Positions 14,061 to 40,240 of a DNA stretch of 64,000 nucleotides are shown here, in pieces; position 1 is the stretch's first letter, and each line of letters begins with the position of its first letter. The notes below the pieces were generated by a model that was given only the letters and a program-made list of their open reading frames with translations, was not told the origin of the DNA and made no database searches. Origin of the DNA: Nitrospirota bacterium (GTDB lineage Bacteria > Nitrospirota > UBA9217); contig DASPSR010000061.1 of NCBI GenBank assembly GCA_035623825.1, positions 8,953 to 72,952 of the forward strand, given 5' to 3'. Both the position numbers and the translations under genes were made by a program.

Positions 14061-14728
14061 TGATGCAAAAATATCCAAAAGGGCTATATTTAAGTATGTT
14101 GGATATTTGGGGCGGTGTTCAAGAAGATTCAACAAAAAAGGGGTTAATGCAGACAGTGTGCATTGCTTTAAGATATCACTGGGAAAAATTCGTCCTTTGA
14201 ACATACGACAGGAGAATCTATATGTAATGTGGAAATGGATACGTATTCTGTTTGAAGTTTGGATTTTTGTCAAAAAAGACAACAACATAGGCATGAGTTG
14301 CTGCAAATAATCCCTTTTTAACTGTCTCTCCTGTAAACTATGCACAACGAAAGTGACACAATCGGCAAATGAAGCTTTTTAGCTTTCTAAATTTATTTAA
14401 GAACTACAACATTGAAGAAATATATGTTTTTACTACCGTAGTTGATCATTGTCGATGGGATATCAATCCATTTTAATACCGCCCGCTTAAAACAGCAGTC
14501 AATTGAAGTTTATGTACCGCCAAGACCCCTTTGAAAATGCCAAAATATCCCAAAAAGGTTGGCTATATGACAAACTCATGGTATACTGATAAATTAGAAA
14601 CGCTAGCATAGCCCAGTCAAAACGAATGTGTTCCTGAAAGGTTGACGCTGTAGGTAAGTAATGAAAGATGCGGTAGACACTGATATTGTATGAAGATAAT
14701 ATAATTGAATTAGAAAGGAGATCATTGT

Positions 14729-15019
14729 ATGGCGCTCATCGAAGATGGTTTGAAAGGCAACCTCGCTACTGGACTGGCTATCGGTATTGGCGCAGCTATA
14801 TTGGCGCCGGTGGTAATTCCTCTGTTTTCCAATATCTCTAAACCATTGGCAAAAGCCGCAATAAAAGGAGGCATCCAGCTCTACGAACGCGGCAAGGAAG
14901 TCTTGGCTGAGGTCGTTGAAATTACTGAGGATATTGTCGCTGAAGCAAAGGCCGAACTGGCTGAGTCAACCGCTGCAGAAGCATCGGTGGCAGCCGAGGC
15001 AGCACTTCCGAAGAGTTAG
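14729..15019 (+). CDS. DUF5132-like small membrane protein (GxxxG, FezA-like architecture)
   Basis: TGLAIGIGAAILAP hydrophobic segment, KPLAKAAIKGG, EDIVAEAKAE; AAGGAG RBS. Confidence 0.8.
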   Translation: MALIEDGLKGNLATGLAIGIGAAILAPVVIPLFSNISKPLAKAAIKGGIQLYERGKEVLAEVVEITEDIVAEAKAELAESTAAEASVAAEAALPKS

Positions 15020-15537
15020 TGAGACATGTTATGATTCCTGATGCCGTCATTGCCCATGCATCAAGAGGGAGATTGCGCATCAAAATACCCTCTCAAAGGG
15101 GTAAACTGGTTGCGCTTAAGTCTTATGGTGACCAGTTTGCCTCATGTCCAGGTGTTCTCTCTATTGAGGTGAATCCGGCAACGGGCAGTATGCTCTTGAT
15201 ACACCAAACAACCTTGGCTGAAATTGCGGAATACGCACGGTCCAAGAACCTTTTTATCTTGAAAGAGCAGAAGAGTCCAAAAGAACCATCAGCAGGTCTT
15301 CGTGGCGATATTGGAAAGACGTTCAAGAGCCTTGATCGACAGATTCAGAGCCTTACGGATGGCGATCTGGACTTGAGCGGATTTACGTTTGCAGCATTAA
15401 TTGTAGCGGGCACAGCGCAAATTCTTTCAGGGAACGCAGGACCTATACCGTGGTTTGCCGCATACTGGTATGCGTTCCACCTTTACTCGAGGACACAAGA
15501 GGGGGAAAAGAAGCAGGGTCAACAGGACCGGGAGTAA
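15019..15537 (+). CDS. HMA2-domain membrane protein (FezC-like architecture)
   Basis: HASRGRLRIKI and VNPATGSMLL motifs; C-terminal hydrophobic segment with a PW motif. Start may be ATG 15031. Confidence 0.75.
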   Translation: MRHVMIPDAVIAHASRGRLRIKIPSQRGKLVALKSYGDQFASCPGVLSIEVNPATGSMLLIHQTTLAEIAEYARSKNLFILKEQKSPKEPSAGLRGDIGKTFKSLDRQIQSLTDGDLDLSGFTFAALIVAGTAQILSGNAGPIPWFAAYWYAFHLYSRTQEGEKKQGQQDRE

Positions 15538-15698
15538 CAGTAACGGGAGTCTTTCAGGTATATCCGCTTGCCAGTTAGCAAAGTAGTGAGCACCATACAA
15601 TTCTTTCCTTACTGAAAATCCGATCCCAATGGAATCAGAATTACCATAAAGCATAAGGGAGCATGTTATGTTTAGTGCACCTTAACAGGAGAAACGCC

Positions 15699-16421
15699 AT
15701 GAGTGACAGAAAAAAGAAAACTCCGATGATTCAGACCGAGAAGCAAAGTCCACGCAGCAGAGCGACAGAAGAGGCTCAGGCTGTCACTGCGAAAATGAAA
15801 GGAGAAACAGATATGGCCAGCGCAGAGACCACAGGCAGTAGAGTGTCCGCAGAAGAGATCGGCAAAGCAGGAACTACAGTGAAAGAGGGTGTCGTCAGTA
15901 GTCTCAAGGGGATAAACGAGATAGAGGCGGAGATCGTCAGCCTAGTCAGAAATACCGTATCCAATACCCTCCGAGCAACGGGCTCGGTCGCCGGCGAGGC
16001 TGTCGGCGTCACGAAGGACGTGATAAAGGGCGCCATTCAGGCCACGGAAGAGGTCGGCACAGGGCTCATCTTGAGCACCAAGAGCGTTGCAAAAGGGGTA
16101 GTGATGGGCGTGAGCGACGTGGGCGGCGATGTTATTTCCGTTGCGGGGTCTACCGTGAAGGGTGCCGTAAAGGGTGCGGCAGAGATCGGCGCGGATGTTG
16201 CCATGGTTGCGCGACGGGCAGTCGACGGTGTGATCGAGGCCACCAAGGAAGTGGGGGGGAACGCTGAAGAGGTTGCGAAAGTCGCCGTGAACGGCGCTAT
16301 TGATGCAGCATCTTCGATCGGCAATACGGCGGTCAAGGCGGTCAAGGACATGCTCGTAGGCGTTGTTGAAGGAGTGAAGGAAGTCGCCAGCACCGCATTA
16401 CCGAAGGCCAAGCAGGCCTGA
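15699..16421 (+). CDS. Ala/Gly/Val-rich amphipathic 22-mer repeat protein
   Basis: AGGAG RBS; the C-terminal 176 aa are eight 22-residue repeats. Confidence 0.8.
   Translation: MSDRKKKTPMIQTEKQSPRSRATEEAQAVTAKMKGETDMASAETTGSRVSAEEIGKAGTTVKEGVVSSLKGINEIEAEIVSLVRNTVSNTLRATGSVAGEAVGVTKDVIKGAIQATEEVGTGLILSTKSVAKGVVMGVSDVGGDVISVAGSTVKGAVKGAAEIGADVAMVARRAVDGVIEATKEVGGNAEEVAKVAVNGAIDAASSIGNTAVKAVKDMLVGVVEGVKEVASTALPKAKQA
15891..16418 (+). repeat. Eight degenerate tandem 66-bp (22-aa) coding repeats
   Basis: VVSSLKGINEIEAEIVSLVRNT / VSNTLRATGSVAGEAVGVTKDV / IKGAIQATEEVGTGLILSTKSV / AKGVVMGVSDVGGDVISVAGST / VKGAVKGAAEIGADVAMVARRA / VDGVIEATKEVGGNAEEVAKVA / VNGAIDAASSIGNTAVKAVKDM / LVGVVEGVKEVASTALPKAKQA. 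Confidence 0.8.
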
Positions 16422-16468
16422 CCACAACTCGTCTGTCGAACGATTTTCCTCAATTTCTAGATGGGGGG

Positions 16469-19400
16469 GTGCCTGTGGTCCAGGCCGTTCATACCTCTGT
16501 AAAAGGACGGGCCCGTTATAAGGTGGAGGGTCTGTATCGCTCGGAATCCCTGAAGCAGCAGATCGAGCAACATCTTGCGCAGCACAAATGGATCCTGAGC
16601 GTATCAGTCAATACACTGACGGGTACCGTCTTGGTGCTTTTCGATTCGCAGAACGGCAATCGTGCGTCATCGATAGCTTCTCTCCTTGAAACCCTAATCG
16701 AACGAAGCAACAGCAGCCTGCTTCCAGGGAAGGAAAGCCAGGCAACTGTTTCCCAGCATAGTGAAAGAAAGAATGCCGTTCGCTCAGAAGCCACTGCGGT
16801 CCCCCCCCGAACTCCCGCCGGCAAAGAAGTGCTAAGCCTGCATACCGTTCGTAAGCAAGTCTCCCATGCCGAGGAGCAAAAGGACGAAGCTTGGCATTGC
16901 ATGTCAAAGGGAGAGGTGCTTCAGAGATGGGGTACCTCAGCGTCAACAGGCCTATCCGAGGAATCAGTCCGTCTTCTATTCAACCAGTACGGTCCAAACC
17001 TTCTCCCAGAATCCGTTCCCCGCTCGGGATGGAGCATCTTTTTCGATCAGTTCAAGTCCCTGCCAGTGGCCATGCTCAGCGTATCCGCTGGCATTTCTGT
17101 TGCCACGGGCGGATTTGCCGATGCCGTGGTAATCATGGCTGTGGTCGTCATTAACGCATCGATAGGGTATGTCACCGAGAGCCAGACGGAGAGGACCATT
17201 CAAGGGCTGAAGAACCTCGTGCAGCCTTCCGCTATTGTGGTTCGCAGCGGGGTCATGTCGACCATCGATGCAAAGGATGTCGTGCCCGGCGACCTGCTTG
17301 TGTTAAGACCGGGAAGCTATGTCTCGGCGGACGCCCGTCTCATTGAGGCGAAATATCTGAGCATTGATGAGTCTGCGCTTACGGGCGAAAGCATGCCCGT
17401 CATAAAAATCACTGACAAACTGGAATTGGCGGACATGCCCCTTGCCGATCGGACGAATATGGTATATATGGGCACCCTGGTCACCGGAGGACAGGGTCTT
17501 GCCATCGTGGTGGCAACGGGGAAGTTCACCGAGGTCGGAAAGATCCAGACCCTGGTCGGAGAGGCGCGGCCGCCCGATACGCCCCTAGAACGGCAAATGG
17601 ACAGATTGGGAGTCCAGCTAGTCTATGTCACGTTGGGCGTATGCGGAATTGTTTTCATTGTCGGGATCCTAAGGGGTTACGGTTTTCTTCAGATGCTCAA
17701 GTCCTCCATCGCTCTTGCCGTGGCCGCCGTCCCGGAAGGACTGCCTACCGTTACAACGACGACCCTTGCGCTCGGCATCAGGCGCATGCGTGACCTTAAG
17801 GTGCTCATCCGTCACCTAGACGCCGTTGAAACACTTGGCTCGGTCGAGACCATCTGTCTCGATAAAACCGGCACCATCACCATGAACAGGATGTCGGTGG
17901 TCCAGGTCCATGCCGGCTCTCGCCGCTTTGATGTCGTTGACAGCAGGATCAGGTCGGATGGTAAGACGGTCAATCCCTATACGAATGAGGATATCCTCCG
18001 TCTGATTCACCTGTCCGTTCTCTGCAACGAATCGATGGTATCAGGCTGTGAAGGCGAGTATGTCGTTGAAGGTTCATCAACGGAGAACGCGCTCGTTCAT
18101 TTAGCGCTCGGTGCCGGAGTGGATGTCAATTCGTTGCGGGCTCAGCATCCCTTGATTAAGATGACCCATAGGTCGGAGGACCGGCATTACATGAGCACAC
18201 GTCACGGGTCGAATGACGGCGGCCAACTCCTGGCCCTCAAGGGAAGCCCCTCGGACGTGCTCTCGCTGAGCAAATGGTACATGAAGGATGGAAAGCAACT
18301 GGAGCTGGACGACACCGCCCGTGCTGTCTTCGAGGCCGAAAATGAGCGTATGGCCGCCGAGGCGCTGCGGGTGCTCGCCGTTGCGTTTGCAGTCAACGAT
18401 GGCGCCACGTTACGCACTGATGAGATTATCCAGCAAGGACTGATCCTGGTCGGGCTCATCGGGATGGCGGACGTGGTCAGGAGCGGCGTCAAGGATCTCA
18501 TCGATATGTTCCACCGAGCTGGGATCGATACGGTCATGATCACCGGGGACCAGAGCCCCACGGCATATGCAATCGGCAAGGAACTCAATTTGAGCAATGG
18601 GAAAGAACTCGAGATCCTGGACTCAAGCAATCTTGCCCGTATCGAACCCGATGTCATGAAGGCGCTTGCCGGACGTGTCCATGTTTTCGCTCGCGTCAGC
18701 CCAGCCAACAAGCTCCAGATCGTCCAGGCCCTCCAGTCGGCGGGTAAGGTCATAGGCATGACCGGCGACGGCATCAATGACGGACCGGCTCTGAAGGCGG
18801 CCGATATAGGTATCGCAATGGGACACACGGGCACTGATGTCGCGCGTGAGGTTGCTGATGTGGTCCTGGAAGATGACAATTTAGAGACCATGGTCGTGGC
18901 CATAAGCCAAGGGCGGACGTTCTACAATAATCTGAGAAAATCGGTCCGGTACATGATTTCCAAGAACACGGGCGAGATAATGATCATGTTCACGGCACTG
19001 GTGGCCGGTTTGGGACAGCCGTTCAACGTCATGCAACTGCTCTGGATTAACATGATATCGGACATCTTCCCCGGCCTCGCTCTTGCTCAGGAGCCGCCTG
19101 AGCCGGATGTTCTCCTGCGGCCCCCTCGCGATCCCGACGAACCGCTCATCAAGACCAGCGACTTCAAGAGACTGCTCTTTGAAGCGTCTACCATCTCGGC
19201 GGGGACCCTTGCTGCTTATGGCTACGGGGTTCTCCGCTACGGCCAGGGCCCCCAGGCAAGCACGATGGCCTTTACGAACTTTGTCACGGCAGGCCTCCTG
19301 CACGCGATCAGCAACCGCTCCGAGACCCACAGCATCTTTGACGCTGAACAGCTTGCACCGAACAAGTACCTCAATATTGCCCTGACGGGCTCACTGGGGC

Positions 19401-19618
19401 TGCAGGCCATGACCTTGATCATTCCGGGCCTCAGGAACTTCCTGGGGATGGGTGTGCTGGGACCCTTGGATCTGGTGGTGACCATGGGAACAGCCGTCGC
19501 GCCCCTGCTTATCAACGAAGCGACCAAAAAGGCTGCCGCTCCTCTGCCGTTGCTAAATGGCAGTGCGGCGGTCCCGGTTACCGCTCTGAATAACAGTCAA
19601 ATTGTCGCAGCTCTTTGA
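16469..19618 (+). CDS. P2A-type (Ca2+-ATPase-like) P-type ATPase with an N-terminal HMA2-like domain
   Basis: TGES, AVPEGLP, DKTGT, TGD, GDGINDGPALK, SKNTGE, QLLWINMISD; N-terminal HTSVKGRARYKV...VNTLTGTVLV. Confidence 0.92.
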   Translation: MPVVQAVHTSVKGRARYKVEGLYRSESLKQQIEQHLAQHKWILSVSVNTLTGTVLVLFDSQNGNRASSIASLLETLIERSNSSLLPGKESQATVSQHSERKNAVRSEATAVPPRTPAGKEVLSLHTVRKQVSHAEEQKDEAWHCMSKGEVLQRWGTSASTGLSEESVRLLFNQYGPNLLPESVPRSGWSIFFDQFKSLPVAMLSVSAGISVATGGFADAVVIMAVVVINASIGYVTESQTERTIQGLKNLVQPSAIVVRSGVMSTIDAKDVVPGDLLVLRPGSYVSADARLIEAKYLSIDESALTGESMPVIKITDKLELADMPLADRTNMVYMGTLVTGGQGLAIVVATGKFTEVGKIQTLVGEARPPDTPLERQMDRLGVQLVYVTLGVCGIVFIVGILRGYGFLQMLKSSIALAVAAVPEGLPTVTTTTLALGIRRMRDLKVLIRHLDAVETLGSVETICLDKTGTITMNRMSVVQVHAGSRRFDVVDSRIRSDGKTVNPYTNEDILRLIHLSVLCNESMVSGCEGEYVVEGSSTENALVHLALGAGVDVNSLRAQHPLIKMTHRSEDRHYMSTRHGSNDGGQLLALKGSPSDVLSLSKWYMKDGKQLELDDTARAVFEAENERMAAEALRVLAVAFAVNDGATLRTDEIIQQGLILVGLIGMADVVRSGVKDLIDMFHRAGIDTVMITGDQSPTAYAIGKELNLSNGKELEILDSSNLARIEPDVMKALAGRVHVFARVSPANKLQIVQALQSAGKVIGMTGDGINDGPALKAADIGIAMGHTGTDVAREVADVVLEDDNLETMVVAISQGRTFYNNLRKSVRYMISKNTGEIMIMFTALVAGLGQPFNVMQLLWINMISDIFPGLALAQEPPEPDVLLRPPRDPDEPLIKTSDFKRLLFEASTISAGTLAAYGYGVLRYGQGPQASTMAFTNFVTAGLLHAISNRSETHSIFDAEQLAPNKYLNIALTGSLGLQAMTLIIPGLRNFLGMGVLGPLDLVVTMGTAVAPLLINEATKKAAAPLPLLNGSAAVPVTALNNSQIVAAL

Positions 19619-19645
19619 GCGCGCGCAGCTCGCGGAGAGGTCCAC

Positions 19646-20845
19646 ATGAAAAAAGACTTTATGTTCACCTCGGAATCGGTCACAGAAGGCCATCCAGACA
19701 AGCTCTGCGACGTCATCAGTGACGCCATTGTTGATCATGTGCTCCAGAAGGATCCCTACGCCAATATCATCGCCGAATGCGCCGTTTCCACGGCTATCGT
19801 TTTTATCGCTGCCAGATTCGCAACCGTTGCCAACGTGGATTATGCCAATGTGGCCAGGCAGGTAATCAGCCAGGTTGACTACGACCAGGCGGCCTTCAAT
19901 GCGAAGACCTGCAGCGTGATCACGAGTCTCAAAGAGGTTCCGAAGGAGAGGCGGCTCCCAGCCGATGAGCGCAGCATGACTGATGAAGAGATCGAGCGTG
20001 TCACCGCCAAAAATCAGGTTACCGTGTTCGGATTCGCCTGTAATCAAACGGCGGCCTTCATGCCGCTTCCGGTCTGGCTGGCCCACCGTCTCGCCCGGAA
20101 GCTCACAGCCGTGCGACTGCAGAAGACGCTCACTTACCTTGCCCCCGATGGTAAAACCCAGGTGGGGATTGAATATCGGGCCGGCAGGCCGTATCGCGTG
20201 CACAGCGTCACCATCATTGCGAGCCAGAAACAGTCTGCTGACAGAGGCGGACCTGATCTCGAAAGGCTTTCAGAGGATATCAGGGAATCAGTTTTGCAGC
20301 CAGTATTCCAGGACGAGGAGATTAAGCCGGATGGAGCGACGCGGATATTCATCAATCCCGATGGTGCCTTCATAGGTGGTGGTCCCGCGGTACACTCGGG
20401 ACTGACGGGAAGAAAGAATGCAATCGACACGTATGGTGAATATTCCCGCCACAGCGGTGCAGCGCTGAGCGGAAAAGACCCCTCCCGGATCGACCGGATC
20501 GGCGCGTACGCTGCCCGCTACGCAGCCAAGAATGTGGTTGCCGCCGGGATTGCCAAAGCCTGTGAAATCCAGCTCAGTTATTCCATAGGCCTCGCACGGC
20601 CGGTGAGCATCCAGGTGGAAACCTTCGGGACCGGCGAAATGCCTGATGAAAAAATAGCCGACATTGTGGAAAAAAATTTCGATTTCCGGCCAGAGGGGAT
20701 CGTCCGTCAGTTCAACCTGCGACAACTCCCCTCTGCAGTGAAAGGCGGATTCTATCGGAAGCTCGCGGCATACGGTCAGATGGGAAGGATGGATATCGGT
20801 TTGCCGTGGGAGTTGACTGACAGGGCGCCCCGCTTGAAAGGGTAA
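19646..20845 (+). CDS. metK: Methionine adenosyltransferase-family protein (divergent MetK paralogue)
   Basis: FTSESVTEGHPDK, PDGKTQV, GLTGRK, DTYG and SGKD retained; GAGDQG signature and the Met ligands are altered. Confidence 0.85.
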   Translation: MKKDFMFTSESVTEGHPDKLCDVISDAIVDHVLQKDPYANIIAECAVSTAIVFIAARFATVANVDYANVARQVISQVDYDQAAFNAKTCSVITSLKEVPKERRLPADERSMTDEEIERVTAKNQVTVFGFACNQTAAFMPLPVWLAHRLARKLTAVRLQKTLTYLAPDGKTQVGIEYRAGRPYRVHSVTIIASQKQSADRGGPDLERLSEDIRESVLQPVFQDEEIKPDGATRIFINPDGAFIGGGPAVHSGLTGRKNAIDTYGEYSRHSGAALSGKDPSRIDRIGAYAARYAAKNVVAAGIAKACEIQLSYSIGLARPVSIQVETFGTGEMPDEKIADIVEKNFDFRPEGIVRQFNLRQLPSAVKGGFYRKLAAYGQMGRMDIGLPWELTDRAPRLKG

Positions 20846-20977
20846 GGGGGGCATCATGTCTGACAATATGGCGAGTGATGCGTTCAGGGCGCGAACTAAG
20901 CGAACGGAGGTTGGCGCAGCGTGATGGTTTGCATCATGTGACCATACTGTCAGTCTGGCGCGAGGGGGGATTACAAC

Positions 20978-21238
20978 GTGAACGGACAGACCTTAGATGA
21001 TAATGAGAAACAGAAGCGTAATCACCGACTTGCTATCGAGAACGTGGCGCAGGACCTTCAGTGCTCCAAAGAGAGTGTAATGACATTGTACGAGATCGTG
21101 TTGACGCGTTATATGCGAAAAGCCAGGATCAAGGATTTTGTTACGCCGCTGGTCATCAAACGCGTCAAAGAACTGCTTAAAGATGATACACCCCCATCTA
21201 CCCTGGAAGGCAGGAGAAATCGTAACTCAGAATTTTGA
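20978..21238 (+). CDS. DUF3562-like three-helix-bundle protein, copy 2
   Basis: HRLAIENVAQDL...LY...ARIKDFVTPLVIKRVKELL; aligns with 13682-13909. Confidence 0.65.
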   Translation: MNGQTLDDNEKQKRNHRLAIENVAQDLQCSKESVMTLYEIVLTRYMRKARIKDFVTPLVIKRVKELLKDDTPPSTLEGRRNRNSEF

Positions 21239-21430
21239 TCATGACCGGAATGTTTCGTGAAAGCTGTCTTGACCGGGGTCTGAAACAGGTTGCGTTCTTG
21301 ACATCATAAGGTTCGGAATCACTGCCAGTGGATGAAATAACGAAATAAAGGGAAGGGAATAATGAACCGTAGCTCCTGGAGAATCGTCGAAACAGGAGGG
21401 CAAGTGTAGATCATCTATCTGTCTGTTAGA

Positions 21431-21802
21431 TTAGAGCAATATAGCCAAGAATGACAATCCGGTTCCTTCGAGAGCGCTTCCAATAAACGCTCCAGTGACG
21501 GCTCTGGTCATCGCGTTATATGCCTTAGTTGTTGCTTGATGGATCACCTGATCATTGGTGATCGTTTTGTCGGGATGGTAGAAACCTACCCTCTCTAGAG
21601 CGCTCAGGATGTCCTGATGATTGATCTCCTTGGGATTGTAGTTGATCAAGAGACTGCCGGTAGTCGTATTGAAATCAGCTGTTCCGATACCATGTCCCAT
21701 GTTCACGAGAGCCTTTTGTACATCATAATGAACCGCGCTGTTCTTGAATAACGGATTTTTGATACGTAATCTGCCCGGAACGTTATGCACGTAATGGTTC
21801 AC
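21431..21802 (-). CDS. HMA2-domain protein with a C-terminal hydrophobic tail
   Basis: YVHNVPGRLRIK, FNTTTGSLLINY; AGGAGG RBS. Confidence 0.8.
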   Translation of the reverse strand: MNHYVHNVPGRLRIKNPLFKNSAVHYDVQKALVNMGHGIGTADFNTTTGSLLINYNPKEINHQDILSALERVGFYHPDKTITNDQVIHQATTKAYNAMTRAVTGAFIGSALEGTGLSFLAILL

Positions 21803-22085
21803 CAGGTAAGCCCTCCTTAAAAGAGATTTTAGTATATCCCTTGCAATTGGGGTAATCTGAGCACCTGAAGCGCATCACATGCGTTTCCCGCCTGTACACA
21901 TGCATCGAGAGACCGCATGAGGGACACGTCGGTCGAGTTTTCGGTTCAAGGCGTTTAGAGCCGAGAAGAAACTGTCTGCCGCACATTATGCATTTGTAGC
22001 GTTGCCTCCCGTCATGCACATGACCATATCTATACAGCGCTTCTGAACTACAAGCCGGGCATCTGTACGCGATCGCCGTTGCCAT
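21783..22085 (-). CDS. Double zinc-ribbon protein, copy 2
   Basis: CPAC...GRQRYKCIMC then CPSC...FRCSDYPNC; start reassigned to ATG 22085 (GGAAGG RBS); overlaps the HMA2 gene start. Confidence 0.75.
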   Translation of the reverse strand: MATAIAYRCPACSSEALYRYGHVHDGRQRYKCIMCGRQFLLGSKRLEPKTRPTCPSCGLSMHVYRRETHVMRFRCSDYPNCKGYTKISFKEGLPGEPLRA

Positions 22086-22109
22086 AGTGTTTATCCTTCC
22101 CATGAAAAA

Positions 22110-22164
22110 ACAATACACTACATATGTTACAATTGTGTTACAACATAGTTAAATTTTTGTTACA
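22110..22164 (-). promoter_or_regulatory. Pho-box-like promoter with four repeats
   Basis: Minus strand TGTAACA-N4-TTTAACT-N4-TGTAACA-N4-TGTAACA-N9-TATTGT. Confidence 0.72.
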
Positions 22165-22500
22165 GACGATCATAGCCGCTAAGGCTGCGTAGTTGCAGTA
22201 AAAAGGCGCTCGTAAAATAATAATGTCAGCTCATGATTTATTTCTCGAATGGATGCTTGATCTGCTATAATTGTCGATACTGAAGCGGCAAACGAATTGC
22301 GCATATGAGAGGATTATGTCGGTGCCGTGAATTACCTTGTGATAGCCGGTGGTGATCCGTAGCAGACATGAGAGATCGGCACACTTTGTGTGATAATCGA
22401 ATACGATCATCAGGGGCTGTTGCGGATAATGCGGTTATCAACTCATCAGATGGGCAATCGACTACGCTGCTCTGAGAAATTTATTAACAGGCGGGACTGG

Positions 22501-22991: not shown

Positions 22992-24749
22992 TTAATTTAA
23001 ATAGATTTTTGCCTTCGTTCCTTTCCCATGCGTGCTTTCGATCTTAATATCCCAGCCGTGCGCTTTCACGAGGTGTTTCACGATCGCAAGGCCGAGGCCG
23101 GTTCCCCCCATGTTCCGCGAGCGGCCCGGATCGACCCGGTAGAAACGCTCGCCGAGCCTCGGCAGATGTTTTTGCGGGATCCCAATGCCGGTATCTACTA
23201 CGAATAAATAGATCCTTCCGTTTTCGTTTGCGTCTCCAAACGTTACACTGCCCGTTTCGGTGAACTTGATAGCATTGTCCACGAGGTTGGTTAGAATCTG
23301 GATGAGCCGGTCCCGATCGGCTTCAATGGTTCTGGGCTCAGGAAGGACCTGCGTTTTGATCGCAAGGTTCTTTGCCTTAGCCTTGTCCCCAAGCACAGTC
23401 AAGACGTGCTCCGTGACATCCTTTATATCGACGCTCGATTTTTGAACCTTGATGACGCCCAGTTCGAGTTTCGAAATAGTCATAAGATCATCCACAAGAC
23501 TGTTGATCCGCTCGCTGTTGGCCTTGATGGTCTGCAGAAATTTGACGGCATGATCGCGGTCATCGATAGCGCCTTCCAGCAGCGTATCGGCAAAACCTTG
23601 AATGGCGGTGATCGGGGTCTTTATCTCGTGGGAGATGTTGGCGACGAAATCCTTTCTGGTCTGTTCGAGCCTTTTCAGCTGTGTGATGTCATGGAATATG
23701 GCGACAAACCCTGAGAGTTCCCGTTCGGTATAAAAAAGAGGGGATACCTGGACGACGCAATGCTGCTCCAGGGGAGAATCGATCGTTATCTCGGCGCTGG
23801 CTGCCCTTTCTTCCTTCCGCACCGTTTCCATGAGCGACAGGAAATCGCTGCTCCTGACGACCTCGATGAAGGGTTTTCCCTGGAGAGCGATGTCGCCAAA
23901 CAGTTTTCTCGCCGCGACGCTGGACAGCATGATCATGCCCTTTGCATCGATGATGAACAGGGCATCGGGAATGTTCCTGAGTATCATGCTCAGGCGATGC
24001 TGTTCCTCCTCATGGCAGACTATGCTGTTTTTAAGTTCCTCGGACATTGCATTAAGGCTCTCGGCAATCTCGTCGAACTCTCCCGCACGGCTAAGAAACA
24101 GTTTTTTACCGACTTCGCCTCGGGAAAGTGATCTGGCAAAATCCCTAATCTGCCGCGTTAGCTTCCGGATATGTTCCATTTGCCAAAGCAAGAAGATGCC
24201 GGTAGCCAAAAGGACAGAAAAGACAATGGAAAGGATCTTGAACCTGAGGATGTTAATCGACGCATCGACGTCTTTGAGCGGAATGCTTAGGCGGATGAAT
24301 CCTTCAGGGCCTGCTCCTCTCTCGACTTTGATTGCGACATAGAGGAAGTTATATTTCATGGTGTCGCTGAACCGGATGGCATTGCCCGTACCGCTCAAGG
24401 ACGCCTGCTGGATCTCCTGCCGGTGCCCATGATTGTCCATAAGTGAAGAATCATTATCAGAGTCGCCGATGACCCTTCCGTTGAGTGCAATGAGCGTGAC
24501 CCGTGAGCCCGTCCTTGCCTTGAGCTTTCGGCAAAGGTCATCGAGGGGCGATGGCGCGTTCAAGGATATGGTGCTTGAGATGAGGTTCGCCTGAACAGCG
24601 AGGTTGTTTTGAAGACCCTCGACATATCTCTCCCGGACCGCGCTGGTGATGAACAGTTCGGTAATAAGCGCCGCAAGGATCATGATGATTGCATAGATGA
24701 TGAAGATCCGCCGAAAGATACTCGGCTTATGAATGTGGTTATTCGACAT
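22992..24749 (-). CDS. phoR: PhoR-like sensor histidine kinase (TM-HAMP-PAS-HisKA-HATPase)
   Basis: DFVANISHEIKTP, NLVDNAIKF, DTGIGI, ERFYRVD...GGTGLGL; start overlaps the phoB stop. Confidence 0.85.
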   Translation of the reverse strand: MSNNHIHKPSIFRRIFIIYAIIMILAALITELFITSAVRERYVEGLQNNLAVQANLISSTISLNAPSPLDDLCRKLKARTGSRVTLIALNGRVIGDSDNDSSLMDNHGHRQEIQQASLSGTGNAIRFSDTMKYNFLYVAIKVERGAGPEGFIRLSIPLKDVDASINILRFKILSIVFSVLLATGIFLLWQMEHIRKLTRQIRDFARSLSRGEVGKKLFLSRAGEFDEIAESLNAMSEELKNSIVCHEEEQHRLSMILRNIPDALFIIDAKGMIMLSSVAARKLFGDIALQGKPFIEVVRSSDFLSLMETVRKEERAASAEITIDSPLEQHCVVQVSPLFYTERELSGFVAIFHDITQLKRLEQTRKDFVANISHEIKTPITAIQGFADTLLEGAIDDRDHAVKFLQTIKANSERINSLVDDLMTISKLELGVIKVQKSSVDIKDVTEHVLTVLGDKAKAKNLAIKTQVLPEPRTIEADRDRLIQILTNLVDNAIKFTETGSVTFGDANENGRIYLFVVDTGIGIPQKHLPRLGERFYRVDPGRSRNMGGTGLGLAIVKHLVKAHGWDIKIESTHGKGTKAKIYLN

Positions 24750-25443
24750 AGTAGCCAACCCCCCTCCGGGTCCTGATATATACAGGATTAGAGGGGTCAT
24801 TTTCAATCTGGGTCCTCAGCCGTCGTATGTGCACATCAACGGTCCTCGGTTCAACGTAGGACTCGTCCTTCCAGACAGCGTCGAGCAGCTGTTCACGGCT
24901 GAAGACCCTGCCCTTTCTCTCGGCCAGAAACAGGAGTAATTTGAACTCTGTTGCGCTGAGGTGCAAGGGGGCATCAGCCTTGGTCACCTGATAGGTCTCT
25001 GCGTTGATACGCAGATCGCCGATGTTAATGACCTTGTCCTTCGTCACGCCTTCGCCGGTCCTTCGGAGGATGGCCTTCACTCGCGCAACGAGCTCCTTTG
25101 GACTGAAGGGTTTTGCCATATAGTCGTCGGCGCCGGTTTCGAGGCCGCGTACCCTGTCCGATACTTCACCCCTGGCGGTCAGCATGATGATGGGGATGGC
25201 TTCTGTTTTTGGATTGCTCCTGAGCATGCGGCAGAGCTCAACGCCCTGGATGCCCGGGAGCATGAGATCGAGGATGATTAGGTCAAATTGCCCCTTGCGG
25301 ACCTTTTCGAGAGCATCCTCGCCGTCAGGGGCAGTGAAAACTTTAAAACCCTCTTTTTTGAGATTATATGAGACTAGTTCTACGAGATCAGGTTCATCAT
25401 CCACTACCAATATCTTTCTTGCATTCATACTGAACGTCCTCAT
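24739..25443 (-). CDS. phoB: PhoB-like OmpR-family response regulator
   Basis: VVDDE, LDLMLP, GADDY.AKPFS, and recognition helix RTVDVHIRRLR characteristic of PhoB. Confidence 0.85.
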   Translation of the reverse strand: MRTFSMNARKILVVDDEPDLVELVSYNLKKEGFKVFTAPDGEDALEKVRKGQFDLIILDLMLPGIQGVELCRMLRSNPKTEAIPIIMLTARGEVSDRVRGLETGADDYMAKPFSPKELVARVKAILRRTGEGVTKDKVINIGDLRINAETYQVTKADAPLHLSATEFKLLLFLAERKGRVFSREQLLDAVWKDESYVEPRTVDVHIRRLRTQIENDPSNPVYIRTRRGVGYYVE

Positions 25444-25718: not shown

Positions 25719-27812
25719 TCAATGCCCCAAGGTGTCGCCGGTGACCTCCCAGATCTGATAAATGGGGCTGTAAAGAACAAGGGGTTGAAAGTACTTCCTG
25801 TCCGGTTGGTGCCGTACAAAGAGCTTATGGAACACTGAGTTGGTGAGCTCCGGGAGCGTGAGCACTGCTAAACGGCCTGGGAAGAAGATGTCCAATTCAG
25901 ACCCCGACTCTCGGTACTTCTGAGTACCTTCATATATCATATTTCGGAAAAAGGCCTGGCTCAAGTTGACCTGACTCGAGCTGACCGTGGCAATCCCAAT
26001 TTGCAGGTCCGCCTCTAATCCGCCTCCGCTTATATTCTGATCCGTGCCATTCACCTCCTGAAAAACGAGGTAAGGTGCCACGTCGTTCCTCAGATGCCCA
26101 GGACGCCAAGTGCCCGGACGGTACCAGCCATCAAACGAACGCAACAGGCTGAATTCAAGAAAGAGAAAAATCCTTCGGTTAGATTGCGGAAAGAGGAATG
26201 ACTCCCAAGATCGGCTACCGGCCGGAGGCTCTTGCAATCCTGCGGTTGCAATGATTTGACCGGCTTTGGAAGGACCTGCAGCCAGGGCTTCTATTAATGT
26301 GTCAAACTTCTTGGCTGGTCCCCCCGATCGCGCCCAAAAATCTATCAGCCCCTGCTCTCCCCGGTTCGCGTAAAATTGGATCCAATTCGCAGCCAGTCGA
26401 AAATCATCAGTGGCAAAAGGAATTGCATTGGCCACCACTGCCTGTCCGTTCCCGCCAATGCCTCCGTCCGCAACAGGTGTCCTTCCCGACTCATAGGCGA
26501 CGGGATAGCCCACGCTCCAACCGCACCAGATCAAAGAGCCCTCGGGTGTGAGTTTTCCCACCTTCGCGATCCCCTCCATGATCTGCGGATCAACATAGGG
26601 CCAGATAACGCCGACGGGGATTTGATTGATTAAAACCAGACCGGTTATTACTCCGGCGGCGGCGGGATCGGCCCAACGCCAGGGGGAGGCAGCGAAGCGT
26701 TGCCATACCTCGGATACAAGGACTCCTGAGCCGAGTGCCAGGAGGGGAGACAAAAAAATTATAAATCGCTGCCCCGTAAAGAATATCAAAACCCCAATCG
26801 AGGCGAGGGGCAGCAGTACGATCGCGTCGCGCCACTTTTTTCGCAGAATAAGCACTACGCCAAGAACTCCAACCAGGAACCCGACAACGCTGCCGCTTGT
26901 CATGCGCGCAATGTAGGTGAAATCATGCTTCTCCAATTCCGACAGAAAAAGGGATGGGCTTGGAAACGGGCTTTTTTCGCGGACAAAGACAACATCAGAG
27001 AGAATTTTGATCTGCTGGAGCAAGCCTGATACTCCATAGATCGCGATCGCGGCAGCCAGAATGATCCCCGATGAAAAAAGCAGCCACAATTTCCTCCTGT
27101 TGAGTGATCCTTCAGAGGTTATTAGGGAGAGGACAATAGGTACGACTGAAAGGTACACGACCATAATAGCATTGGTATCCCAGGACCAATAAAGCAGACA
27201 GCCTAATCCAGCCAAAAAAGTCGAGAACAACAGCACTTTTGCCATATCGCGCTCACGAATACGTAATGATGCCCAGGCAATCCACAAGCTCAATGGGACT
27301 ATCAGACAGTCGGTATCATAAAACGCGAATCCTGACCGGTACACCCAGAGAGGGGCCATAGTTCCGATTAGGCCGGCGAAAGCGCCTGCAATCCAGCTAC
27401 CTCCAACATCCGCTGCAAGGAGATAGAGCGGGATTGCCGCCGATGTTCCGAGAACAACAGGTATCCAGGCGGCACACCATTCAAGGGACACCCCAGTCAC
27501 CCTTGACAACGTAGCAGCGAGTAACGAAAGGAGAGGCGACAAATACGGAAACGGTTCCGGATCGTTGGCGACGACATCAGATCGGCCGGCTTTTCTTTCG
27601 TTCATATCCCTCGCCAGGCCCAGATAGTGATAACCGTCGCATTCTCTTAAAACCGGCGACCCTTTGTAAAAAGCCTGTTCCGGGGCCTTCTCCCAGGCAT
27701 GCCAGACGGATGCTCGCTGTCCGGCTCCCGCAGCCAAAATTCCGATAAGACACAGAACAGGCAGCGCTCTCTGCAGGAGAAACGTTCCAGTGAGGTCACT
27801 TTTCTTTATCAT
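25719..27812 (-). CDS. STT3/PglB/AglB-family oligosaccharyltransferase-like protein
   Basis: ECDGYHY, YRSG..YDTD, SELE, GQRF, and GWSVGYPV...DGG at the WWDYG position; many TM helices plus a periplasmic domain. Confidence 0.8.
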   Translation of the reverse strand: MIKKSDLTGTFLLQRALPVLCLIGILAAGAGQRASVWHAWEKAPEQAFYKGSPVLRECDGYHYLGLARDMNERKAGRSDVVANDPEPFPYLSPLLSLLAATLSRVTGVSLEWCAAWIPVVLGTSAAIPLYLLAADVGGSWIAGAFAGLIGTMAPLWVYRSGFAFYDTDCLIVPLSLWIAWASLRIRERDMAKVLLFSTFLAGLGCLLYWSWDTNAIMVVYLSVVPIVLSLITSEGSLNRRKLWLLFSSGIILAAAIAIYGVSGLLQQIKILSDVVFVREKSPFPSPSLFLSELEKHDFTYIARMTSGSVVGFLVGVLGVVLILRKKWRDAIVLLPLASIGVLIFFTGQRFIIFLSPLLALGSGVLVSEVWQRFAASPWRWADPAAAGVITGLVLINQIPVGVIWPYVDPQIMEGIAKVGKLTPEGSLIWCGWSVGYPVAYESGRTPVADGGIGGNGQAVVANAIPFATDDFRLAANWIQFYANRGEQGLIDFWARSGGPAKKFDTLIEALAAGPSKAGQIIATAGLQEPPAGSRSWESFLFPQSNRRIFLFLEFSLLRSFDGWYRPGTWRPGHLRNDVAPYLVFQEVNGTDQNISGGGLEADLQIGIATVSSSQVNLSQAFFRNMIYEGTQKYRESGSELDIFFPGRLAVLTLPELTNSVFHKLFVRHQPDRKYFQPLVLYSPIYQIWEVTGDTLGH

Positions 27813-38421: not shown

Positions 38422-40005
38422 GTGAAAATAACGGATCTGCGACTCCTCCACGCGATAGTGATGATCATTGCATATGCGGCTCTCCTGTCCCGCCCGTGTT
38501 GTGCGGGGGAAGCCGGCAACACGGGATTCGAGATCAAAGCATTCGAGGTCACCAGTAACACCCTGATTCCCGATGATAAACTGCGCAGCGCGGTTGCCTC
38601 TTTTACCGGGGTAGGAAAAACAGCGACTGACGTGGAGAACGCGCGGGACGTCCTGGAGAAACTGTATCACGATGCCGGCTATCCCACAGTGATAGTGAAC
38701 ATTCCGGAACAGACCCTGCAGGACGGAATCGTCAAACTGCAGGTCATCGAAAGCAGGGTAGGCAGGATCAGGGTTACGGGCAACCGGTATTTCACCATAG
38801 AGAAGCTGTTGAAGGACTTGCCTTCCCTTGCTCCGGGCACGATAATTTATCTGCCGGATGTTCAGAAGGAGATTGGACGTCTGAATGCAAGCCAGGACAT
38901 CAAGGTCGATCCCATCATGTCACCGGGCAAGGAAGTCGGGACCATCGACGTGGAGCTCAGGGTAGAGGATCATCTCCCGCTGCACGGTTATCTGGAACTG
39001 AACAACCGGGCGAGCCCGAATACATCGCCGCTGCGGCTGAATGCGCTCGTCCACTACGACAATCTCTGGCAGCAGGAGCATTCTCTCTCCCTCCAGTGCC
39101 AGGTAGCGCCCGTGAACCCGAAAGACGCAAAAGCGCTTGCCGTTTCTTACGCTATTCCGGCGCCATGGCAGAAGGAAGACCAGGTAGCCCTTTACGGGGT
39201 ATGGTCGGACAGTAATACGGCATTCGGCGAGGGATTCAGGGTTATTGGAAAGGGACAGATATACGGCATACGCGGAGTCACCACCCTGCCACCGTACAAA
39301 CTCTATGCCCATGCCGTGACCTTGGGTGTCGATTACAAACATTTCGATCAGGGCGGTTTCACAGGGGCAAGTGGCCCGATTTCGTATCTGCCTTTTATGG
39401 TTTCGTATAGCTCCTCGCTTCCCGATACTTGGGGAGGGATGACCCAGTTCGGTGTGGGATTGAACTTTTCACTGCGTGGAGTAGTCTCGAATGAGAGTGA
39501 ATTCGAGAACAATAGGTACCAGGCAATGGCGAACTATGTTTACGTCGTCGCGAGCATTACGCGTACCCAGAAGCTGCCATGGGGAATGGGTCTCCTCGTG
39601 AAGGTGGACGGACAATCCGCCAACCAGCCGCTCATCGTCAACGAACAGTATCTCGCCGGCGGCATGGAAAGCGTCCGCGGTTACAAGGAAAACGAGCAGG
39701 CTGGTGACAACGGCATGCACGGGATGATCGAGCTTTCCTTCCCGGACCCTTTCGAGAAATCCTCTGCGGCGAAGTTGATCCATATGAGTCCCTTTCTCTT
39801 CTATGATTTTGCCGCTTTGACCATTATCGACCCGCTTCCCACCCAGGCTGAAAAAATCAGGCTTGCGGGCACCGGCGCGGGAGTGCGCGGCCAAGTCTGG
39901 AAGCATCTCGAATATGAAGTAGACTGGTCTTTGGCCCTGAAAGACACGGACATAACGAAGAGAGATGACGAACGAGTGTATTTTATAGTGAAAGCGGAGT
40001 TCTGA
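38422..40005 (+). CDS. TpsB (ShlB/FhaC/HecB) two-partner secretion transporter
   Basis: POTRA motifs (LYHDAGY..V.VNIPEQ), GGMESVRGY, C-terminal Phe. Confidence 0.92.
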   Translation: MKITDLRLLHAIVMIIAYAALLSRPCCAGEAGNTGFEIKAFEVTSNTLIPDDKLRSAVASFTGVGKTATDVENARDVLEKLYHDAGYPTVIVNIPEQTLQDGIVKLQVIESRVGRIRVTGNRYFTIEKLLKDLPSLAPGTIIYLPDVQKEIGRLNASQDIKVDPIMSPGKEVGTIDVELRVEDHLPLHGYLELNNRASPNTSPLRLNALVHYDNLWQQEHSLSLQCQVAPVNPKDAKALAVSYAIPAPWQKEDQVALYGVWSDSNTAFGEGFRVIGKGQIYGIRGVTTLPPYKLYAHAVTLGVDYKHFDQGGFTGASGPISYLPFMVSYSSSLPDTWGGMTQFGVGLNFSLRGVVSNESEFENNRYQAMANYVYVVASITRTQKLPWGMGLLVKVDGQSANQPLIVNEQYLAGGMESVRGYKENEQAGDNGMHGMIELSFPDPFEKSSAAKLIHMSPFLFYDFAALTIIDPLPTQAEKIRLAGTGAGVRGQVWKHLEYEVDWSLALKDTDITKRDDERVYFIVKAEF

Positions 40006-40240
40006 TGTCGCTGAAAATATTCGGCTTAGGATCAGCGATTGCAATCCTCGATTATATACAGGACTTATGCGTCCTGTATTAAAGGTATCAAGAAAAATGG
40101 TTTATCCGATAAGCAGTTTTCCGGTCCGGTCTGTCGCCGGACTGGGATGATATCGTTTGTACTCCAGGAGTGATCGGTTCCAGGCCGCGACTGCGGATTC
40201 GACTGACGTCATCCGCGATGGAATCCTTGGAGGGGAAAAT

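Follow-up and report, generated by a model that had tools for sequence, protein, structure and literature searches.

Analysis of a 64,000-nucleotide stretch of DNA from a Nitrospirota bacterium (hereafter the window; GenBank assembly GCA_035623825.1, contig DASPSR010000061.1, positions 8,953 to 72,952 of the forward strand) revealed a MetK-family paralogue, encoded on the + strand at 19646–20845, whose methionine pocket has been rebuilt and whose gene directly follows that of a P2-type (Ca2+/Mn2+-pump-like) ATPase (16469–19618, +). We favor the reading, with a probability of roughly 0.55, that it is a neofunctionalised protein of the methionine adenosyltransferase (MAT) fold that does not form S-adenosylmethionine (SAM) and acts as a dedicated cytoplasmic partner of the upstream pump. 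That the paralogue is not the cell's SAM synthetase is very probable, and a function bound to the pump is equally so; a role in handling ATP or triphosphate at the site it has retained is somewhat favored, while its docking on the pump headpiece is proposed tentatively. In bacteria and eukaryotes, the MAT family is regarded as a single essential enzyme with a single function, and the naming of its members is automatic. The clade described here would constitute a second function within this family, filed as metK, and the pump-linked offshoot is widespread, mis-annotated, and apparently undescribed.

The open reading frame (ORF) encodes 399 residues (ATG start, stop codon included in the coordinates) and was assigned to the MetK family by Pfam and TIGR matches, alignment, and phylogeny. 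It starts 27 nt past the stop codon of the pump and carries its own ribosome-binding site (GGAGAGG). PF00438, PF02772, and PF02773 all match the protein nearly full length in Pfam, and it is ~41% identical to E. coli MetK. Its AlphaFold model (predicted local distance difference test [pLDDT] of 88.9, predicted template modeling score [pTM] of 0.89) aligned with solved MATs with query-normalised template modeling (TM) scores of 0.85–0.90 and root-mean-square deviations of 1.4–3.4 Å. The original prediction for this gene, made from the sequence alone, anticipated that automated pipelines would label it metK, and this is what we found: its TIGR01034 score of 375.8 bits exceeds the cut-off of 309.4, and all source names shown are SAM synthetase or MAT. 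The TIGR01034 cut-off, therefore, lets the paralogue clade through, while the canonical MetKs of related genomes score ~582–610 bits. Since the pocket is rebuilt and the label is metK, pathway reconstructions that count the paralogue as SAM synthesis would be wrong.

Residues were compared, in mature numbering throughout, with the fetched sequence of E. coli K-12 metK (L022:1207–2361). On the methionine side, the paralogue displays E55R (in AARFA), Q98V (in KEVPKER), S99P, I102R, D238H (in GPAVHSG), and K269R (in DPSRID), while the motif GAGDQG reads TAKNQV (G117K, D118N, and G120V); residues E55, Q98, I102, D118, D238, and K269 of MetK are thus R, V, R, N, H, and R here. The glycine-rich triphosphate loop, HGGGAFSGKD in E. 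coli, reads HSGAALSGKD (G258S, G260A, and F262L) and is preceded by G253E. Both GAGDQG and GGGAFSGKD occur in E. coli and in 10/10 canonical MetKs of relatives, and both are replaced here (TAKNQV and SGAALSGKD). Residues H14, D16, K17, E42, D163, K165, F230, R244, K245, K265, D266, and D271 are unchanged, and the triphosphate, Mg2+, and K+ ligands of MetK are all present together with its catalytic acid. The alignment bears out every substitution that had been claimed from a remembered sequence (E55R, Q98V, D238H, K269R, and TAKNQV) and each residue said to be retained (H14, D16, K17, E42, D163, K165, R244, K245, K265, and D271). We count D118 among the methionine-site residues of MetK, and Taylor and Markham reportedly found in 1999 that the D118N and D238N variants of the E. 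coli enzyme lose ~1000-fold in kcat for SAM synthesis while most of the tripolyphosphatase activity is kept. In passages of PMC3853416 on E. coli MAT, the amino group of methionine is bound by D238 and E55 and its carboxylate by Q98 and K269, with I102 touching the side chain; a passage of PMC1282579 likewise has methionine bound by Q98, D238, and E55. The assignment of L-Met binding to the four replaced residues agrees with these descriptions. The same two sources, in the passages concerned, describe ribose hydroxyls held by D163 and D238, F230 stacking on the adenine, and H14 as the catalytic acid for C5′–O5′ cleavage. Relative to canonical MetK (E. coli; PDB 1FUG, 1RG9, and 1P7L), the window copy shares the three-domain fold, the triphosphate, Mg2+, and K+ ligands, and the adenosine contacts, whereas its methionine ligands are replaced, two motifs are altered, its score lies ~225 bits below canonical relatives, and it stands as an extra copy directly behind one pump family.

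These substitutions are not peculiar to the window. A whole-library protein search returned 17,744 proteins at E ≤ 0.001, of which the best 150 were examined, and 41 related genomes were scanned for MetK-family matches. In the related genomes, the matches fell into a canonical class (~582–610 bits) and a low-scoring class (368–387 bits), the latter being found in 8/41 genomes (G000–G004, G014, G017, and G034). All seven paralogues compared from these genomes (7/7) carry R55, N118, V120, H238, R269, E253, S258, and L262, while 10/10 canonical MetKs of relatives retain E55, Q98, D118, D238, and K269. A broader and diverse set with H238, L262, and R269 was recovered among the best 150 library matches. 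In a tree of 126 full-length sequences, 25 paralogues formed one clade with a support of 1.0, located on the longest internal branch (0.41, compared with a median of 0.075). The ratio of nonsynonymous to synonymous substitution rates (dN/dS) was 0.057–0.130 in six paralogue pairs with dS of 0.23–0.39 and 0.050–0.114 for remoter unsaturated pairs, with seven pairs being saturated. As judged from these ratios, the clade is under purifying selection and not in decay. The possibility that the substitutions are unique to this copy and reflect decay is contradicted by the clade (support of 1.0) and its dN/dS of 0.06–0.13; the R/V/H/R signature proposed as the mark of an ATPase-tied clade was recovered in the form R/hydrophobic/H/R, in a group that is both monophyletic and pump-linked.

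Conservation was assessed in an 85-member set that was defined by H238 and R269 and is, hence, circular at those two sites. D16 (84/85), K17 (81/85), E42 (84/85), H14 (80/85), R244, K245, and K265 (85/85 each), and D271 (84/85) are nearly invariant, while residues on the adenosine side are less well kept (K165 in 65/85 and F230 in 38/85). Position 118 is N in 47/85 and D in 15/85, with other residues or gaps in the remaining 23. Position 55 is R in 69/85, H in 8/85, and K in 3/85; position 117 is K in 27/85 and R in 23/85; and position 98 is mostly L or M. Further changes shared by most members are G120 to V or A (78/85), G258 to S (74/85), and F262 to L (84/85). Judging from these alignments, residues that are consistently basic or hydrophobic occupy what was the methionine pocket throughout the clade. 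An invariant Cys at the position of E. coli A19 was dropped as a clade mark, since canonical MetKs picked by the search pattern have this Cys too. At least 85 clade members were recovered, and co-inheritance with the pump spans seven or more phylum-level groups. Among the carriers are Nitrospirota, Desulfobacterota (Syntrophobacteraceae, Desulfomonile, and Syntrophus), Cyanobacteria (Chlorogloeopsis, Rivularia, and Crocosphaera), Methylococcaceae, Chromatiaceae, Methylocystis, Rhodoplanes, Acidobacteriota, and Binatia. The proteobacterial members come from the Gamma- and Alphaproteobacteria.

The association with the pump was examined in two collection scans of 80 loci each, in which groups were set by gene order and not by residue signature. 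Loci were considered pump-linked if a pump on the same strand lay no more than 1500 bp upstream, and pump-less if at least 1500 bp of upstream DNA contained no pump. Among the pump-linked MetK homologues, 80/80 carry H238 and R269 and 0/80 carry D238/K269. Pump-less loci carry D238/K269 in 56/57 cases, with H238 and R269 found in a single one (1/57; L132); the 23 loci with too little upstream DNA comprise 3 with H238 and R269 and 20 with D238/K269. The distance from the end of the pump match to the start of the paralogue is 15–296 bp in 79/81 loci. The 8/41 related genomes with the paralogue are also exactly those with a pump orthologue (63–100% identical, N-terminal domain included), and the remaining P2 pumps of the 41 genomes are at most 40% identical, with matches beginning only near query residues 93–160. 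Even the sole exception to the upstream pump places the MetK-like gene beside an ATPase: in L132, the MetK-like gene (L132:6995–8182; 66% identical to the window copy) is followed at L132:8524–10497 by a 657-residue P2-type ATPase relative that lacks the whole N domain and displays GKTG (G in place of the phosphorylated Asp) and TPEH in place of TGDQ. Upstream of this MetK-like gene lie DUF2656 and PAPS-reductase genes. In L061 and L105, apparent long ORFs that run across both genes proved to be out-of-frame artefacts.

The pump itself (1049 residues) comprises an N-terminal CoBaHMA/HMA_2 domain (approximately residues 1–85, Pfam), a variable linker, and a P2-type ATPase whose nearest solved relatives are SPCA1 and Listeria LMCA1; TIGR01522 scored 631 bits, under its cut-off of 798. 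PF19991, the HMA_2 family matched here, presumably corresponds to CoBaHMA. In 64/64 members of the pump family, DKTGT, TGDQ, GDGxND, PEGLP, the N/E of M5, and the N/D of M6 are invariant, and 52 pump N-termini show little or no variation at H8, G13, R14, and R16. The N-domain Phe of SPCA1, LMCA1, and Na,K-ATPase is replaced by Arg in 64/64 family members (R568 in the window, codon at 18170–18172). We take this position to be that of the adenine-stacking F487 of SERCA, and the adjoining Lys position, which varies across the pump family, to be that of SERCA K492. Compared with SPCA1/PMR1-type pumps and LMCA1 (PDB 8IWW and 6ZHF), the pump shares DKTGT, PEGLP, the N/E of M5, the N/D of M6, the N-domain K of KGxP, and the R of LRVL, but differs in its extra N-terminal CoBaHMA domain, the Arg in place of the N-domain Phe, and the MetK-like gene behind it. 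To our knowledge, no P-type ATPase has been described with an obligate soluble partner of an enzyme fold.

In the reading that we favor, the paralogue would bind ATP or inorganic triphosphate/polyphosphate at its retained site, with the tripolyphosphatase half-reaction, rather than alkyl transfer, most likely kept. It would act on or with the cytoplasmic headpiece of the pump, in the setting of a module that comprises membrane proteins of the DUF5132 and CoBaHMA kinds and may handle a divalent cation. We rank this triphosphate role above a new adenosyl acceptor because the clade shares the triphosphate site, whereas K165 and F230 are often replaced. The competing proposal is an adenosyltransferase that cleaves ATP at C5′, releases triphosphate, and transfers the adenosyl group to a nucleophile in the basic pocket, namely an anion (a carboxylate, a thiolate, or a phospho-compound, for example) held at R55, H238, R269, and K/R117; its product would be a 5′-adenosylated molecule serving the pump module. 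We consider this unlikely. The acidic-to-basic switch of the pocket, with the basic residues that predominate at positions 55 and 117, is consistent with such an enzyme, and the window copy does retain H14, D163, K165, and F230; across the clade, however, K165 is replaced in 20/85 and F230 in 47/85, and D118 is kept in only 15/85. Given these losses on the adenosine side, the function shared by the clade seems not to need adenosine chemistry. Moreover, D238, described as a ribose-hydroxyl holder of MetK in a passage of PMC3853416, is His throughout the clade, and the conserved neighborhood contains no candidate substrate pathway for a new acceptor.

Physical binding to the pump was addressed by complex prediction, in which the paralogue was combined with the CoBaHMA domain, a P/N fragment, and an A-domain fragment of the pump, each with an alignment. 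The prediction scored 0.40 (0.39, 0.42, and 0.40 in the individual runs), which amounts to weak support, while the best of three controls, including a replacement of the P/N fragment, scored 0.00. The runs share at least 84% of their contacts, and the partner pLDDT is at least 86. In calibration, the mark was reached by 58/80 solved complexes and 2/110 mismatched pairs, and passes at or below 0.60 consisted of 7/80 solved complexes and both of the passing mismatches; the present job, with four chains and custom alignments, is also unlike the calibration set. The prediction, therefore, raises the odds of physical binding only slightly. An electrostatic fit of the paralogue to the basic CoBaHMA domains was dropped, since the protein is near neutral (charge of +2, pI of 8.15).

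The strict gene-for-gene linkage to the pump and this weak prediction would also suit a non-catalytic pseudoenzyme, that is, a subunit or sensor with a regulatory or scaffolding role for the pump, binding a nucleotide or polyphosphate or no ligand at all. The altered glycine-rich loop agrees with such a role, and so does L132, where the paralogue persists beside an ATPase relic without the N domain and with G for the phosphorylated Asp; the pairing of paralogue and ATPase thus persists without a working pump cycle. Nevertheless, H14, D16, K17, E42, R244, K245, K265, and D271 are kept in 80–85 of the 85 clade members, beyond what a pure scaffold would need, and we regard the pseudoenzyme as distinctly unlikely. 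A bolder and very unlikely extension concerns a two-part pump system, a type that has no described counterpart among P-type ATPases, in which the MAT-fold partner would be the nucleotide-handling half, splitting ATP at C5′ or capturing triphosphate or polyphosphate. Its context is the Phe-to-Arg change in the pump N domain (64/64) and the L132 ATPase devoid of both the N domain and the phospho-Asp. In one variant, the triphosphate would energise or gate the pump; in another, it would be passed via the basic CoBaHMA domains and deposited with the pumped Ca2+, where it might stabilise intracellular Ca-carbonate or Ca-phosphate inclusions.

Several observations weigh against the reading of the paralogue as a triphosphate-handling, non-SAM-forming pump partner. 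As the window copy has H14, D163, K165, and F230, alkyl transfer at C5′ would be chemically possible in this subclade, and residual or altered SAM synthesis is possible as judged from sequence alone. The glycine-rich triphosphate loop is itself changed (G253E, G258S, G260A, and F262L), and it lies in the weakest stretch of the model (residues 251–280, pLDDT of 52–65); an altered loop of low confidence means that the triphosphate site may behave unlike that of MetK. Binding to the pump is proposed on the basis of gene order, co-occurrence, and one weak prediction. Fusion evidence consists of three singleton pump/MetK-like fusions (P0286, P0287, and P0333) whose domain sets are incomplete, and these were not counted as Rosetta-stone evidence. 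Finally, a canonical metK was not found in this assembly (89.65% complete), nor in G002 (99% complete) or G003, which belong to the same genus.

The last observation bears directly on whether the paralogue could be a genuine SAM synthetase, i.e. a dedicated isozyme expressed together with the pump, possibly the only SAM synthetase of the genus. This is highly improbable, although the TIGR01034 score exceeds the equivalog threshold, the window copy has intact ATP-side residues, and the missing housekeeping enzyme does not appear to be of the archaeal type, which was set aside since PF01941 has no match in this assembly. All methionine ligands are replaced, and the search for a canonical metK elsewhere, suggested alongside the original prediction, gave a divided answer: one was not found in this assembly, but it is present beside the paralogue in 10/13 paralogue-bearing genomes. 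The canonical copy and the paralogue occur together in G001, G004, G014, G017, and G034 (partial), and canonical MetK (464–602 bits) was found in 5/5 further paralogue-bearing genomes, including the complete genome of Chlorogloeopsis fritschii PCC 6912 (G041), which holds two paralogues (404 and 386 bits) and a canonical gene (541 bits). The sites concerned in PCC 6912 are C1:5915678–5916835 and C1:1588354–1589532, and its L032 locus contains two DUF5132 genes and a DUF5132–HMA_2 fusion.

The gap in this genus may be one of assembly. G001, of the same genus, has a canonical metK on a contig of 393 kb; the gene is split there into two overlapping pieces and contains one TGA, which could reflect a frameshift or a sequencing error. 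Contig C42 of the present assembly starts inside the gene directly downstream of canonical metK in G001 (residues 147/155–418, 95% identity to the G001 counterpart); the same downstream gene is severed at residue 98 in G003 and was not found in G002. We infer that the metK region drops out of the three short-read assemblies of this genus, and the missing canonical metK in this assembly would then be due to the contig gap at the start of C42. The sites in question are the start of G000:C42, G001:C1:31340–32457, and G003:C39:5699–6661. In two genomes of genus g4 in the same family, G006 and G022 (95% and 86% complete), no MetK-family match was found; archaeal-type MAT was not searched there. Taken together, the rebuilt pocket, the clade, the tie to the pump, and the coexisting canonical metK lend good support, at the level of sequence, to the earlier claim that the paralogue is probably not a SAM synthetase.

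The closest known parallel to the gene module is the ccyA (calcyanin) neighborhood of Microcystis aeruginosa PCC 7806, where, in a passage of a preprint (bioRxiv 10.1101/2024.07.07.602159), DUF5132 and CoBaHMA proteins adjoin a Ca2+/H+ exchanger gene, and the set is put forward as a candidate for forming amorphous calcium carbonate inside the cell. CoBaHMA domains are described, in a passage of PMC8890360, as having a conserved His and basic residues and no CxxC. As far as these passages describe it, the ccyA neighborhood resembles the present module in that DUF5132 and CoBaHMA-type domains stand beside a Ca2+ transporter gene there and a P2-type pump gene here, and the paralogue clade is also found in cyanobacteria (Chlorogloeopsis fritschii PCC 6912) and Methylococcaceae. 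The two differ in that the former has a Ca2+/H+ exchanger, with calcyanin (the GlyZip protein) as its marker, while the latter has a MetK-like protein and a P2-type ATPase to which a CoBaHMA domain is fused. The passages searched, among them those of PMC8890360, make no mention of a MetK-like gene, the term 'adenosylmethionine' being absent from them; the Microcystis preprint was not searched for the term. Another divergent relative, the eukaryotic MATX, is described in a passage of PMC3923989 as a MAT paralogue that is mostly mutually exclusive with MAT. On that description, MATX resembles the present paralogue as a divergent member of the MAT family with a patchy distribution, but it replaces MAT, whereas the pump-linked clade, which no longer has the methionine site, occurs alongside canonical MetK. 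Our literature search found no description of a bacterial pump-linked MetK paralogue, although a mention in Gaschignard et al. 2024 (Proteins, CoBaHMA) is possible. With the paralogue, the DUF5132/CoBaHMA gene sets under discussion for intracellular calcium handling in bacteria gain a further candidate, for which cultivable carriers exist (Chlorogloeopsis fritschii PCC 6912, Rivularia sp. UHCC 0363, and Methylocystis sp. L43), and explaining the pump partner could reveal a new coupling of nucleotide or polyphosphate chemistry to cation pumping.

The pump and the paralogue belong to a larger group of genes. Upstream, on the + strand, lie genes for a 96-residue DUF5132 protein with an N-terminal hydrophobic segment (14729–15019; PF17195, 47.8 bits), a stand-alone HMA_2 (CoBaHMA-like) protein of 172 residues with a C-terminal hydrophobic segment (15019–15537; PF19991, 42 bits), and a G/A/V-rich helical-repeat protein (15663–16421) whose start codon is uncertain and which is conserved from approximately residue 34. 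The repeat protein has no Pfam or NCBIfam match; it is 75–84% identical in close loci and has a paralogue at G000:C12 5239–5844. These three genes precede the pump in 6/7 close loci, the seventh of which, L021, is truncated within the pump gene, and often do so in distant loci. Downstream, a DUF3562 protein of 86 residues (20978–21238, +; PF12085, 39.4 bits) is kept in Nitrospirota loci and a few others. Convergent with the operon, a second stand-alone HMA_2 (CoBaHMA-like) protein of 123 residues (21431–21802, −; PF19991, 34.4 bits) is encoded near the module in many loci from several phyla, and it is co-located with the gene of a 111-residue zinc-ribbon protein (21783–22118, −; zinc-ribbon Pfam matches). 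Altogether, PF17195 was found once and PF19991 three times (two stand-alone proteins and the pump N-terminus). Three metatranscriptome runs (X8, X9, and X11), which belong to three studies, yielded RNA-library contigs that match parts of 14740–19260 with 0–3 mismatches, from the DUF5132 gene up to the pump gene. The interval 19373–22300, which includes the MetK-like gene, is covered by none of them, although such contigs cannot prove absence and thus carry no information on the transcription of this gene.

In the promoter region of the operon, a 17-nt motif, TAGGTAAGTAATGAAAG (14651–14667, +), is located ~60–80 nt before the first operon gene, just 5′ of a pair resembling −35 and −10 elements (TAGACA at 14674 and TAATAT ending at 14702). 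It is the sole long conserved block in the upstream regions of seven related loci, and elsewhere in the 3.24-Mb assembly it occurs in three copies with at most three mismatches, two of which have two mismatches. The promoter-like hexamers are not above chance (6 found compared with 5.2 expected), the motif shows no clear 11-bp Pho-box periodicity, and Rfam gave no match at E ≤ 1 for a leader RNA upstream of the operon or the C12 locus. A regulatory role is proposed for the motif. The two 2-mismatch copies, for which the chance expectation is, by a rough estimate, far below one, lie near G000:C12 6103 (−) and G000:C11 5699 (+). The C12 copy precedes the repeat-protein paralogue and, after it, genes for an MntP-family putative Mn efflux protein, an Rce1-like protein, and a bactofilin. 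This arrangement hints at a small divalent-cation regulon.

Beyond the module lie a PhoR/PnpS-like histidine kinase (22992–24806, −; NF046044 at 375.4 bits, cut-off of 400) and a PhoB-like response regulator (24739–25443, −; TIGR02154 at 287.7 bits, cut-off of 296.2). This pair is adjacent in three same-genus loci and not generally elsewhere; its members are neighbors of the module that are conserved only within the genus. No pst gene scored above cut-off in this assembly (TIGR00975, nothing; TIGR00972, at best 198 bits compared with 343; TIGR02136, 45.5 bits), and no further phosphate genes were present among ten neighboring ORFs. The phosphate-supplying role offered in the original prediction thus finds no support here. 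An STT3/PglB-like oligosaccharyltransferase homologue of 697 residues (25719–27812, −) adjoins the two-component genes; its matches are weak (39.9 bits for PF02516 and, against a cut-off of 1300, 69.6 bits for NF050801). Farther along the window, a 3542-residue ORF (40157–50785) stands directly after a ShlB/FhaC-type POTRA transporter gene (38422–40005), and the two look like a two-partner secretion pair.

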